A program made the position numbers and the translations under genes. A DNA stretch of 9,589 nucleotides, taken from a virus (lineage: Duplodnaviria > Heunggongvirae > Uroviricota > Caudoviricetes). A model generated the notes under the pieces. It was not told the origin of the DNA, did not search any database, and worked only from the letters and a program-made list of their open reading frames with translations. The stretch lies in the IMG/VR virus record IMGVR_UViG_2563366982_000003; one strand, given 5' to 3'. Shown one piece after another: positions 1,790 to 8,193 of the stretch; the stretch's first letter is position 1, and each line of letters starts with the position of its first letter.

Positions 1790-2215
1790 TTAGTGCATCA
1801 CCACAGCATTCCCTGCCGGGCCGCCGCGATTCATCTGGTCATACAAAACAACCGCTGACGCAACAAAATCATCGACATCCTTCACCAGCCGATCCCTCCG
1901 TTCGACGATCTCACGGTAATATTCAGAACTGTGGCTGCGCATACGGGCCACCAGCAAAGGCGGCATCGCCTTTTCGATCGCCGGTAACAGAGCCTGCATT
2001 TTTTCAACAGCATCAGGGGTGTCTTTATCCAGCCAACGGAAAATTTTCTGGGTATTACGGGCCAGGGCTTCCGGATGGCTGTCGTCATACAGTTCCGGGA
2101 ACGTCATTCCCAGCTCGAAATACGCTTTGGTAATTTTCGCAGCCGGTACTTTTTCGCCGTCCGGATGCGCCCAGACATTCATCGCCATGCGGATGTGTTC
2201 ATGCTTGATTTTCAT
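1790..2215 (-). CDS. ydaT: YdaT-family protein (CII-like regulator / putative toxin family of Rac-type prophages)
   Basis: 141-aa ORF beginning MKIKHEHI..., matching my memory of the YdaT family N-terminus and size (~140 aa); start ATG overlaps the upstream gene stop (ATGA at 2212-2215), implying translational coupling with the ydaS-like gene. Confidence 0.65.
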   Translation of the reverse strand: MKIKHEHIRMAMNVWAHPDGEKVPAAKITKAYFELGMTFPELYDDSHPEALARNTQKIFRWLDKDTPDAVEKMQALLPAIEKAMPPLLVARMRSHSSEYYREIVERRDRLVKDVDDFVASAVVLYDQMNRGGPAGNAVVMH

Positions 2216-2514
2216 GAATCAACTCCATCAGATAAGCATGTACTACAATCACCTTCAGCATGAACTACATGTGTTTGCCCCAAACGAATGCCGCTCGCAT
2301 ACTCAGGCCAAATAAGCTCCCAATCATGGGGTCGTAGCTCCGCCCTACTTACTTGGCCTTCCGTCGCAGATTCGATCATAAGGGCGCGGGTTGGAGATAT
2401 AGCTGTTCGTCCAGACGCCATTTGCGATAAGTAAGATGGCGATACACCAAGTCTGGCCGCGAATTTCTTAGCATCACCAACCCTTAATGATTTAATAAAC
2501 TCTTTTAATGTCAT
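2212..2514 (-). CDS. ydaS: YdaS-like Cro-type HTH DNA-binding protein (Cro analogue of the switch)
   Basis: 100-aa ORF; HTH signature KKFAARLGVSPSYLSQMASGRTAISPTRALMIESATEGQVSRAELRP; SD GAGGAAGG 4-12 nt upstream of the ATG at 2514; divergent from the regulator gene at 2612. Confidence 0.7.
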   Translation of the reverse strand: MTLKEFIKSLRVGDAKKFAARLGVSPSYLSQMASGRTAISPTRALMIESATEGQVSRAELRPHDWELIWPEYASGIRLGQTHVVHAEGDCSTCLSDGVDS

Positions 2515-2611
2515 ACCTTCCTCGGTTTAGTGTTTTTTTGCGAGTTTAGTGTTTAATAAACCATTAAGTCAAGTATTTGCTTGTTTAGTGATTACTAAAG
2601 ATAATTACCAC
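2515..2611. promoter_or_regulatory. Divergent promoter/operator region between ydaS-like (minus) and paaR2-like (plus): repeated heptamers GTTTAGT/GTTTAAT and palindromes, candidate -35/-10 elements for both directions
   Basis: GTTTAGT at 2525-2531, 2544-2550, 2583-2589; GTTTAAT at 2551-2557 with complement AATAAAC at 2555-2561; perfect dyad TTTAGT-GATT-ACTAAA at 2584-2599. Candidate plus-strand promoter: -35 TTGCTT (2577-2582), 17-bp spacer, -10 GATAAT (2600-2605). Candidate minus-strand promoter: -35 TTGACT (complement of 2567-2572), -10 TAAACT (complement of 2543-2548). A further TTTAATAAAC copy lies at 2491-2500, inside the first codons of ydaS. Confidence 0.55.
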
Positions 2612-2983
2612 ATGCAAAAAAAAGAAATTCGCCGTTTACGTCTCAAGGAGTGGTTTAAAGATAAAACTCTGCCACCCAAAGAGAAGAGCTACCTATCTCA
2701 ACTAATGAGTGGGAGAGCCTCGTTTGGAGAAAAGGCTGCCAGAAGAATAGAGCAAACATACGGGATGCCGGAAGGGTATCTGGATGCGGAATACGCAGAA
2801 CAACCGGGGGTTTCTCCACCACATGCAGGGTTAACGTCTAATCAACTGGAATTATTGCAGATTTTTTCAGCCTTCCCTGAGGATGAGCAACGCCAGATAA
2901 TCAGCGAGTTAAAGCAGAAAAAAGAATCAATGGAAGATCTCATAGCGAGATGGATTGCGGCGCAAAAATGCCGCCGCGCCTGA
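2612..2983 (+). CDS. paaR2: HTH (XRE/cI-type) transcriptional regulator of the three-component ParE toxin-antitoxin module; occupies the cI position of the prophage switch (PaaR2-like)
   Basis: 123-aa ORF from ATG 2612 (the track's 2549 start is a GTG lying inside the operator repeats, with no SD); HTH region LSQLMSGRASFGEKAARRIEQTYGMPEGYLD; no peptidase S24 domain; directly upstream of the antitoxin/toxin pair. Symbol from memory of the E. coli O157:H7 paaR2-paaA2-parE2 system; the paralogous paaR1 module cannot be excluded without alignment. Confidence 0.6.
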   Translation: MQKKEIRRLRLKEWFKDKTLPPKEKSYLSQLMSGRASFGEKAARRIEQTYGMPEGYLDAEYAEQPGVSPPHAGLTSNQLELLQIFSAFPEDEQRQIISELKQKKESMEDLIARWIAAQKCRRA

Positions 2984-3003: not shown

Positions 3004-3195
3004 ATGAATAGAGCCCTTTCACCAATGGTTTCTGAATTTGAAACCATTGAACAAGAAAACAGTTACAACGAATGGCTGCGTGCGAAAGTAGCAACGAGCC
3101 TTGCAGATCCGCGCCCAGCAATTCCCCATGACGAAGTTGAGCGCAGAATGGCAGAACGCTTTGCTAAGATGCGTAAGGAACGGAGCAAGCAGTAA
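3004..3195 (+). CDS. paaA2: Small antitoxin of a ParE-family toxin (PaaA2-like, 63 aa)
   Basis: 63-aa ORF MNRALSPMVSEFETIEQENSYNEWLRAKVATSLADPRPAIPHDEVERRMAERFAKMRKERSKQ from ATG 3004 with SD GGAGGA at 2995-3000; stop TAA at 3193-3195, 1 nt before the toxin ATG. Size and operon position match the PaaA2 antitoxin as I recall it from the literature. Confidence 0.7.
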   Translation: MNRALSPMVSEFETIEQENSYNEWLRAKVATSLADPRPAIPHDEVERRMAERFAKMRKERSKQ

Positions 3196-3196
3196 A

Positions 3197-3475
3197 ATGT
3201 TACCCGTGTTATGGCTTGAAAGCGCAGATACCGACCTAGATGATATAACTAGTTATATTGCTCGTTTCGACATAGATGCGGCTGAACGCTTATGGCAGCG
3301 ATTAAGGGGTTGTGTGCTGCCGTTATCCGAACATCCGTATTTATACCCACCAAGCGACAGAGTACCTGGCTTGCGTGAGATTGTAGCCCACCCTAACTAT
3401 ATAATTCTATACCGCGTAACAACATCAAGCGTTGAAGTAGTAAACGTGATCCACGCAAGACGCCAGTTTCCCTAA
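3197..3475 (+). CDS. parE2: ParE/RelE-superfamily toxin (ParE2-like)
   Basis: 92-aa ORF from ATG 3197: MLPVLWLESADTDLDDITSYIARFDIDAAERLWQRLRGCVLPLSEHPYLYPPSDRVPGLREIVAHPNYIILYRVTTSSVEVVNVIHARRQFP, with the characteristic ParE C-terminal pattern (...YRV...V.V..H.RR..). The track's 3101 start overlaps the antitoxin and is rejected. Confidence 0.8.
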   Translation: MLPVLWLESADTDLDDITSYIARFDIDAAERLWQRLRGCVLPLSEHPYLYPPSDRVPGLREIVAHPNYIILYRVTTSSVEVVNVIHARRQFP

Positions 3476-3559
3476 CTTTCACTACCAATAGAAACATAAC
3501 AACCGCAACGACTTTATCAAAAGCGTTGTGTTTGTTATGCCCCGCGGTTTAGTTTTTAC

Positions 3560-3590
3560 TTGACTTAAGTTTAATGTTTATTAAACTAAA
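3560..3590 (+). promoter_or_regulatory. Candidate repressor-controlled promoter of the dicB-type operon: -35 TTGACT, operator palindrome GTTTAAT-GTTT-ATTAAAC, -10 TAAACT
   Basis: -35 TTGACT 3560-3565; 16-bp spacer; -10 TAAACT 3582-3587. A perfect 7-bp inverted repeat with 4-bp spacer (3569-3586) fills the spacer and -10 and is near-identical to AGTTTAGTGTTTAATAAAC at 2543-2561 in the divergent switch region. The stretch TTGACTTAA-GTTTA..TTAAAC is shared by both loci. Confidence 0.5.
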
Positions 3591-3766
3591 AATACCAACC
3601 CACCCCGCCCCACAGAACGCAGGGAAATACTTCGAGTTACCCGGCAGTGGTCAGGGGTTAAGTAGCCAGCCCGAGGCGTATGAACATGACGGCGGGAACA
3701 CTTTGTATAACAGCGCAGCAGGTTTTTTGTTCCGCTACCCCGGCGTTAAGGGGAAATGAGGTCAAC

Positions 3767-4791: not shown

Positions 4792-4848
4792 TTTCTGGTG
4801 ACGTTTGGCGGTATCAGTTTTACTCCGTGACTGCTCTGCCGCCCTTTT
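4792..4848 (+). ncRNA. dicF: DicF small regulatory RNA (ftsZ-targeting sRNA of Qin-type prophages), including its 3' stem and U-tract
   Basis: Sequence TTTCTGGTGACGTTTGGCGGTATCAGTTTTACTCCGTGACTGCTCUGCCGCCC + TTTTT matches my memory of the 53-nt DicF RNA; GGCGG (4807-4811) / CCGCC (4839-4843) pairing followed by a T-run gives a rho-independent 3' end; lies 180 nt upstream of the dicB ATG as in the Qin dicB operon. Exact 5' end not determinable from sequence. Confidence 0.75.
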
Positions 4849-5493: not shown

Positions 5494-6055
5494 ATGAGCA
5501 CTGATAAAGAAGAATTTGCGCTATATTGCGAAGCAAAAAATGACAAAGTCAGAAAACGTCTGGGAATTAAAGGTGGTTTTTACTGGACTACAGCAAAAAA
5601 ATTATCTGTTGCCATCTCCCGCTGCATTACCGCAATGGATGACAACGATTATGATGAAGACGACTTTAAAAAACCCGTTCGCGTCCATTTACCCGTTGTG
5701 AATGACCTTCCACCTGAAGGCGTGTTTGATACCGAATTCTGCAACCGATACGAAAAAGGCGGGGAAGATGGCATTACAATGGTATTTATCGCGCCCTCTC
5801 CCTCCGTGCAGGAGAAACCAGCCAGTACTGACAATACCAACGTCAACGGCGAAGACATGACGGAGATTGAGGAGAATATGCTCCTGCCGGTTTCTGGTCA
5901 GGAGCTGCCCATTCGCTGGCTTGCGCAACACAGCAGCGAAAAACCAGTAACGCACGTTGCACGGGAAGAACTTCAGGCATTACATATAGCACGGGCGGAA
6001 GAACTGCCGGCTGTTACTGCCCTGGCCATTTCTCACAAAACAAAGCTGCTCGACC
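5494..6055 (+). pseudogene. RecE-like (exodeoxyribonuclease VIII family) prophage exonuclease gene, N-terminal fragment, interrupted by an IS21-family insertion
   Basis: ORF from ATG 5494 (SD GAGG 5482-5485); the track ORF 5494..6105 reads 50 nt into the IS terminal repeat before a stop. Deleting 6056-8193 (IS plus one repeat copy) rejoins this frame exactly to the frame open from 8193 to the window end (...HKTKLLD|[24 protein letters not shown]...). Assignment to the RecE family is from recalled similarity of the N-terminal region and the synteny after dicB/ydfD. Confidence 0.6.
6049..6055. repeat. Left copy of the 7-bp direct repeat (CTCGACC) flanking the IS21-family element: putative target-site duplication
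   Basis: CTCGACC at 6049-6055 immediately before the IS terminus TGTCA; identical heptamer at 8187-8193 immediately after the other terminus. Confidence 0.55.
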
Positions 6056-6115
6056 TGTCAACGCCACGATGTTTGACCGTTATTTGCCATTTTCATGCCC
6101 GCTAAGATACTTTCG

Positions 6116-8085
<1,970 letters not shown>

Positions 8086-8186
8086 GTTGATGTCCTTTCT
8101 GGTGTGAGAACCTTAAGGAAACAACATGTTGGGTGGAGCGGACAATCCAAATGGTGAATTACCGTCTTATATCACTGGCGCTGACA

Positions 8187-8193
8187 CTCGACC
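8187..8193. repeat. Right copy of the 7-bp direct repeat (CTCGACC) flanking the IS21-family element
   Basis: See left copy; only removal of the IS plus exactly 7 bp restores the exonuclease reading frame. Confidence 0.55.

Follow-up and report, generated by a model that had tools for sequence, protein, structure and literature searches.

Transcription of the cI gene of bacteriophage lambda from PRM gives the classic leaderless mRNA, and lambda cI is made from both PRE and PRM. In the lambda sequence, PRM reads TAGATA-17-TAGATT-TAACGT-ATG, and the first nucleotide of the mRNA is the A of its AUG. DicA, the cI-position regulator of dicB in the Qin prophage, occupies the same position in a lambdoid immunity region; we know of no evidence that dicA is leaderless.

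The closest described system is the paaR2 locus of prophage CP-933P (Sp12) of Escherichia coli O157:H7, which was studied in strain EDL933 by Jurenas et al. (2021, mBio; PMC8630535). By 5' RACE, the start of the transcript from PRM933P coincides with the predicted paaR2 start codon, a result that rested on five clones and one growth condition, and the primer F-1-PaaR2 is defined by the authors as beginning at the RACE-mapped +1 of PRM933P. PaaR2-His made from a transcript starting at that +1 began with MQKKE and weighed 15,081 Da as intact protein; the source for both determinations was a pBAD construct from which the upstream region was already missing. For PaaR2 made from its native promoter, the evidence given there consists of RACE and a Western-blot size comparison, in which the size was the same.

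The same paper describes, in the intergenic region, four 18-bp palindromes with the half-site GTTTAGTAA together with overlapping direct repeats. These palindromes overlap PRM933P, and the DNase I footprints of PaaR2 (~78 bp) and YdaS (~65 bp) on the 97-bp intergenic region cover both PRM933P and the divergent promoter PR933P, which was also confirmed by 5' RACE. High PaaR2 or YdaS represses both promoters, while at low PaaR2 the activity of PRM933P rises about 4-fold and that of PR933P falls; the bistability of the paaR2/ydaS region is described, and the parallel with lambda cI and PRM is drawn by the authors themselves (PMC8630535). Thus, the leaderless start of paaR2, its operators and the bistable switch were already known and published in 2021. 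In addition, a second promoter, PRE933P, is activated by YdaT and forms an alternative upstream start for the paaR2 operon that gives a leadered transcript; YdaT-induced PRE933P activity reached only the basal level of PRM. Later literature retrieved for PaaR2 mostly concerned the unrelated 'PAAR2' of type VI secretion, and the Rac YdaT paper says nothing new on leaderless translation.

The window carries the immunity region of a CP-933P-type prophage

The window, i.e. the whole stretch of 9,589 nucleotides analysed here, holds the immunity region of a lambdoid prophage of the CP-933P/Sp12 type, and the gene in the cI position is paaR2, the functional analogue of lambda cI (Table 1). Gene order and orientation are as expected for a paaR2-paaA2-parE2 module, with paaA2 and parE2 downstream and ydaS-ydaT divergent, i.e. 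the same order, ydaT-ydaS/paaR2-paaA2-parE2, as in CP-933P; beyond ydaS and ydaT, Pfam searches identified O-like and DnaC-like replication genes.

Table 1. Coordinates of the features of the paaR2 immunity region in the window
Feature	Position	Strand	Basis or remark
ydaT, CII analogue	1790-2215	-	Pfam YdaT_toxin; PMC9986795
YdaT operator OM TTGATTTTCATGAATCAA at the ydaS/ydaT junction, at PRE933P	2205-2222		exact match; described in PMC9986795
ydaS, Cro analogue, with canonical Shine-Dalgarno sequence (-8.6 kcal/mol)	2212-2514	-	Pfam YdaS_toxin/HTH_3
Third direct-repeat copy GTTTAGTGTTT, in the ydaS leader	2525-2535	+	
PR933P-type promoter for ydaS: TTGACT 2572-2567, 18 bp, TAAACT 2548-2543	2543-2572	-	promoter scan
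Second operator palindrome GTTTAGTGTTTAATAAAC, assigned here to 'IR3'	2544-2561		overlaps the PR -10 element
Rejected GTG start, inside an operator copy	2549-2551	+	in frame with ATG 2612, no stop between
TTGCTT, -35 element of PRM933P	2577-2582	+	3/6 to consensus; direct sequence reading
17-bp spacer of PRM933P, GTTTAGTGATTACTAAA	2583-2599		direct sequence reading
Operator palindrome GTTTAGTGATTACTAAAG, assigned here to 'IR1' of Jurenas et al.	2583-2600		fills the PRM spacer
GATAAT, -10 element of PRM933P	2600-2605	+	5/6 to consensus
TACCAC, six-base discriminator between -10 element and start	2606-2611	+	length kept, sequence free across homologues
ATG, transcription start (+1 = A) and paaR2 start codon	2612-2614	+	published 5' RACE
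paaR2, cI analogue, 123 aa, V67	2612-2983	+	sequence identity to PaaR2
paaA2, antitoxin	3004-3195	+	Pfam PaaA2, 1e-19
parE2, toxin	3197-3475	+	Pfam ParE_toxin, 1.9e-16

Residues 1-66 of PaaR2 are 100% identical to the solved N-terminal domain (PDB 7nkv, 8c3k and 8c3l), and 122 of the 123 residues are identical to those of the O157:H7 protein, the exception being V67, which replaces G67 in the interdomain linker. A Pfam search of the 123-aa protein returned no family, neither HTH nor Peptidase_S24. PaaR2 lacks the S24 autocleavage domain and is therefore not SOS-inducible, unlike lambda CI, to which it has no detectable sequence similarity; also unlike lambda, a toxin-antitoxin pair rather than rexAB lies downstream. 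In total, PaaR2 works like CI, yet it is not a member of the CI/LexA family of HTH_3 plus Peptidase_S24 proteins. By tblastn, PaaR2 is 27% identical to the products of dicA-annotated genes over nearly the full length, a marginal match (E = 5e-4), and DicA, like PaaR2, has a short helical C-terminal domain and no peptidase.

At the DNA level, O157:H7 strain ATCC 43888 has exactly the same 97-bp intergenic region (2515-2611), and the segment 2150-3500 differs from this strain by three SNPs in 1351 bp (2241, 2811 and 3174), of which the one at 2811 gives V67 instead of G67. The same segment is 100% identical to ATCC 25922, several ST131 strains and others, and the window therefore derives from a non-O157 relative of the same prophage. 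Compared with CP-933P of EDL933, for which the leaderless start, the operators and the autoregulation were published, the window prophage differs by V67, carries two IS insertions and resides in another E. coli background. When the locus-specific EDL933 primers (PMC8630535 Table S3) were tested on the window, 29/30 mapped exactly, F-1-PaaR2 to 2612-2639 and the PRM reporter fragment to 2539-2612; primer R-CP933P had no exact match in the window, and both 'Neg' control primers were likewise unmatched. The mass recomputed for the ATG-start O157 protein with Met retained and a His6 tag is 15,081.0 Da, and RefSeq annotates an ATG-start CDS of 372 nt in both O157:H7 and ATCC 25922. Because of the intergenic identity, the primer matches, the recomputed mass and the RefSeq ATG start, the EDL933 results apply to the window.

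Several further features of the window lie outside the paaR2 intergenic region. An IS21-family element (6056-8186; istA 8085-6913 and istB 6916-6116, minus strand) is inserted in an Exonuc_VIII-like exonuclease gene, is flanked by a 7-bp target duplication, CTCGACC (6049-6055 and 8187-8193), and is missing in ATCC 25922, whose prophage is otherwise identical. Positions 1-202 are the end of an IS3-family element, whose OrfA starts at 131 and runs towards position 3 on the minus strand (Pfam HTH_Tnp_1); it is ISEc52-like in the annotation of one record and is present in 2426 plasmid records. In the DnaC-like gene (100-798), this IS3-family end has taken the place of the original 3' end, and the C terminus of the DnaC-like protein is aberrant for this reason. 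The gene for the small RNA DicF (4793-4844, plus strand; Rfam RF00039, score 76.7 bits, gathering score 48) sits where related prophages have dicB. Finally, a PL933P-type promoter, TTGACT-16-TAAACT (3545-3593, plus strand), lies just downstream of parE2 with GGTTTAGT and TTTAAT operator-like copies, within the published F-PL/R-PL primer fragment.

Promoter, operators and start codon of paaR2

An earlier reading made from the sequence alone (the sequence-only reading) had proposed that the regulator gene in the cI position is transcribed from a promoter directly in front of ATG 2612 as a leaderless mRNA. The elements that it named, TTGCTT, a 17-bp spacer, GATAAT and six bases before the ATG, are located exactly as it had placed them. 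The -10 element, which it had described as good, matches five of six consensus positions; the promoter as a whole is modest, with 8/12 consensus positions and a -35 element matched at 3/6, and it fell below the threshold of a consensus promoter scan, which called the divergent PR-type promoter and not PRM933P. Since the consensus scan had missed the PRM933P hexamers, they were judged by shuffles and by conservation. PRM933P and the PR933P-type promoter stand back to back, and the AGTCAA block of the latter is conserved.

The dyad TTTAGT-GATT-ACTAAA (2584-2599), with perfect 6-bp arms, lies inside the palindrome GTTTAGTGATTACTAAAG. The motif GTTTAGTG occurs three times in the 9.6-kb window (at 2525, 2544 and 2583), all inside the 97-bp intergenic region, with 0.38 occurrences expected. 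From the dyad that fills the spacer the sequence-only reading had drawn autoregulation, and this agrees with the published footprints and with the repression and stimulation of PRM933P by PaaR2 (PMC8630535).

No Shine-Dalgarno sequence was found before ATG 2612, as had been claimed: the best duplex between the 20 nt upstream and the 3' end of the 16S rRNA has -0.9 kcal/mol, against -5.8 to -10.7 kcal/mol at five neighbouring gene starts taken as annotated, among them ydaS, paaA2 (-9.5 kcal/mol) and the dnaC-like gene (-10.7 kcal/mol). Thus, TTGCTT-17-GATAAT-6-ATG has its -10 element in the range of 6-7 nt before the start codon and its -35 element in the range of 16-18 bp, and the start codon is an AUG without a Shine-Dalgarno sequence. 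Moreover, the protein N terminus corresponds to ATG 2612 by sequence (MQKKE) and by mass, the sequenced protein being that from a construct without the upstream DNA.

The sequence features of PRM933P are real, but by themselves they are only suggestive of a leaderless start. Confidence in this start comes from the published start mapping and from conservation. The former bore out the proposal that transcription begins at the A of the ATG, as for lambda cI from PRM, because the published 5' RACE was done on an identical sequence (PMC8630535).

Codons 2-4 of paaR2 form an A8 tract (2616-2623) directly after the 5'-terminal AUG. Among 57 E. coli-type loci, with variants including L081-L084, four have A7, a frameshift, and in five the tract is interrupted by the synonymous AGAAAAAA; a frameshift is also present in the A tract of the homologue from Morganella (L020). 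These variants are either sequencing errors or real slippage.

Conservation of the promoter geometry among homologues

Homologues of the N-terminal domain of PaaR2 were collected from GenBank phages (Klebsiella phage 5 LV-2017 and Burkholderia phage vB_E177), from one genome per species (25 loci) and from IMG/VR (80 loci), and the loci were clustered into 28 distinct groups. The geometry TTGNNN-17/18-NANNNT-6/7 nt-ATG is kept in 22/28 of these diverged clusters, which come from Enterobacterales, Burkholderiales and Neisseriaceae. They comprise Escherichia, Klebsiella, Raoultella, Enterobacter, Citrobacter, Yersinia, Erwinia and Pantoea, as well as Morganella, Arsenophonus, Acerihabitans and one Photorhabdus, and also a Burkholderia phage, Ca. 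Glomeribacter, Formosimonas and a Neisseriaceae genome. All 22 have TTG at the -35 position and ATG at the start; the gap between the -10 element and the ATG is six bases in 20 clusters and seven in two (L004/L111 and L030). The pattern with a 17-bp spacer and a six-base gap occurs 16 times among the 3,024 ATGs of the same loci, mostly at repressor starts.

In the 20 clusters with a six-base gap, the mean majority fraction is 0.92 for the -35 element, 0.81 for the spacer with its operator, 0.89 for the -10 element, 1.00 for the ATG and 0.73 for codons 2-7; by contrast, it is 0.40 for the six-base discriminator. This comparison shows a discriminator that is constrained in length and free in sequence, and the distance from the -10 element to the ATG is under selection family-wide. 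A fixed length together with a free sequence is expected if the start codon is at +1, and not if the discriminator holds a ribosome-binding site. No Shine-Dalgarno motif was seen in the 22 geometry-keeping clusters. A GAGG before the ATG of the Burkholderia phage was considered and rejected, since it ends 2 nt from the ATG, which by established spacing rules is too close to act as a Shine-Dalgarno sequence. In many relatives, an in-frame stop codon lies 3-27 nt upstream of the ATG, and thus there is no conserved N-terminal extension of the kind that a start at GTG 2549 would give.

Six Photorhabdus/Xenorhabdus copies depart from this geometry. In L008, L009, L014 and L015, the core GTCAAG-TATTTGCTT...TACTAATCACAAT lies ~55 nt before the ATG with no clear Shine-Dalgarno sequence, and in L016 and L018 the promoter core is not evident within 100 nt upstream. 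Judged from their sequences, these copies seem to be naturally occurring variants with a leader, in a gene that is leaderless elsewhere.

The promoter/operator core 2540-2605 is conserved as DNA among the E. coli, Klebsiella (L004) and Burkholderia (L005) phages, while the flanking coding DNA aligns less well than the core, and full-length identity of the Klebsiella protein is only 45%. Such a pattern points to strong selection on the operators and possibly to a shared immunity specificity across genera. In L005, L012, L028, L030 and L031, and also, judged by length and alignment, in L024, the promoter/operator cassette is the same, but the PaaR2-type N-terminal domain is fused to Peptidase_S24; where those relatives carry S24, the tail of E. 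coli PaaR2 is short, helical and DicA-like. In the records of two phages, the annotation of the repressor gene is incomplete: in KY271399 (Klebsiella phage 5 LV-2017; L004 1501-1857) the homologous gene is wholly unannotated, and in PQ789817 (Burkholderia phage vB_E177; L005 1501-2163) the C-terminal part alone is annotated (CDS 1768-2163). Probably, the absent Shine-Dalgarno sequence misleads gene callers at these repressor genes.

A highly improbable alternative to a leaderless start at ATG 2612 is that paaR2 begins at GTG 2549 on a longer transcript, giving a 144-aa protein with the N terminus MFNKPL..., in which case the hexamers of PRM933P would be coding sequence. The reading frame is open from 2549 to 2612, the start was apparently put forward by a gene-caller track, and the leadered transcript from PRE933P would include 2549. 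However, the RACE start at 2612 leaves the GTG upstream of the mapped transcription start, a native-promoter fragment that includes 2549 gives a protein of the ATG-start size, and the published N terminus is MQKKE rather than MFNKPL (PMC8630535), the latter being the peptide start that the sequence-only reading had named as a possible refutation of its proposal; the measured mass is 15,081 Da, whereas 17,532 Da would be expected from the GTG. Moreover, GTG 2549 has no Shine-Dalgarno sequence (-2.5 kcal/mol), the extension is not conserved, and RefSeq annotates the ATG instead. As the sequence-only reading had pointed out, a coding sequence starting there would run across the operator repeats; the GTG indeed lies inside the operator copy 2544-2561, which is footprinted by PaaR2 and YdaS. 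For PRM transcripts, the GTG start is refuted by RACE, protein size, N terminus, mass and non-conservation.

That the hexamers arose by chance in the AT-rich operator DNA and that the true promoter is elsewhere in the intergenic region can practically be dismissed. In favour of chance, the hexamers match at 8/12 positions and escaped the scan, the window has about 0.6 sites as good as this per kb and strand, and 66% of the shuffled versions of the AT-rich 161-bp region contained an equally good match at some position; but only 2.3% of the shuffles put such a -10 element five to seven nt before the ATG. Against chance also speak the published RACE start, which is exactly where the PRM933P hexamers predict it, the 74-bp fragment (2539-2612) with PRM933P that drives gfp in the reported experiments (PMC8630535), and the position and spacing kept in 22 clusters despite the varying discriminator. 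Altogether, these observations support that PRM933P with its start at ATG 2612 is the promoter of the leaderless paaR2 mRNA.

Proposed mechanism and its meaning for the family

We conclude, with a probability of about 0.95, that paaR2 is transcribed from PRM933P starting at its own ATG, as a leaderless mRNA like that of lambda cI and within an operator-controlled bistable switch. Start, N terminus, mass, footprints and reporters come from the literature, and the identity of the locus, the lack of a Shine-Dalgarno sequence and the geometry come from the present analysis. In this mechanism, sigma-70 RNA polymerase uses the weak PRM933P (TTGCTT-17 bp-GATAAT) and starts at the A of the paaR2 ATG, and the mRNA therefore has neither a 5' untranslated region nor a Shine-Dalgarno sequence. 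Ribosomes would recognise the 5'-terminal AUG directly, as for lambda cI, presumably by the 70S-type initiation for which lambda is the precedent. PaaR2 and the Cro analogue YdaS compete for the spacer operator and for the adjacent, overlapping copies that reach into the divergent PR933P; at low PaaR2, PR is repressed and PRM modestly stimulated, while at high PaaR2, or with YdaS, PRM is shut off, and the result is a bistable switch.

The locus shares with lambda the back-to-back PR and PRM with common operators, a weak PRM, the geometry of PRM, an A-rich coding start, positive and negative autoregulation, and a second upstream promoter activated by a CII-type protein. Because the operon is also transcribed, with a leader, from PRE933P, the leaderless mRNA is not the sole paaR2 mRNA. 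Complementing the leaderless mRNA from PRM933P, a substantial share of the PaaR2 made during establishment might come from the long YdaT-activated PRE933P transcript, which is antisense to ydaS and on which ATG 2612 would be internal and used without a Shine-Dalgarno sequence. The induction of PRE933P by YdaT and the exact match to the YdaT operator OM are in line with such a contribution, as is the precedent of lambda, where PRE also serves cI. However, unlike in lambda, nothing resembling a Shine-Dalgarno sequence precedes ATG 2612, and an internal start on the PRE933P transcript may thus be inefficient; moreover, the activity of PRE was no higher than the basal level of PRM. We therefore hold this contribution to be possible, but with the odds slightly against it. 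The leaderless mRNA from PRM933P would be made in either case.

More widely, the leaderless arrangement is probably an ancestral and selected property of a portable promoter/operator/repressor cassette and not a peculiarity of CP-933P. This cassette would consist of the divergent PR and PRM, operators of the type GTTTA...TACTAA and a PaaR2-type DNA-binding domain, and would recur, almost unchanged at the DNA level, in Enterobacterales, Burkholderiales and Neisseriaceae prophages, joined to either a DicA-like helical tail or an S24 autocleavage domain. In this scheme, the Photorhabdus/Xenorhabdus copies, with ~55 nt to the ATG or with the core absent, would represent natural transitions from leaderless to leadered.

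For the annotation of this locus, the correct start of paaR2 is ATG 2612, and the GTG 2549 model is to be discarded. To the published description of the switch, the present analysis makes modest additions, i.e. the family-wide leaderless geometry, the leadered variants of Photorhabdus/Xenorhabdus, which are thereby marked as natural variants for comparison, and the annotation failures in phage records. Phage annotations systematically overlook the leaderless repressor genes of the PaaR2 family or give them a wrong start, probably because these genes have no Shine-Dalgarno sequence. The fixed 6-nt gap of free sequence, found in more than 20 lineages, is a signature that can be read from sequence only and that could predict leaderless genes of the cI type.
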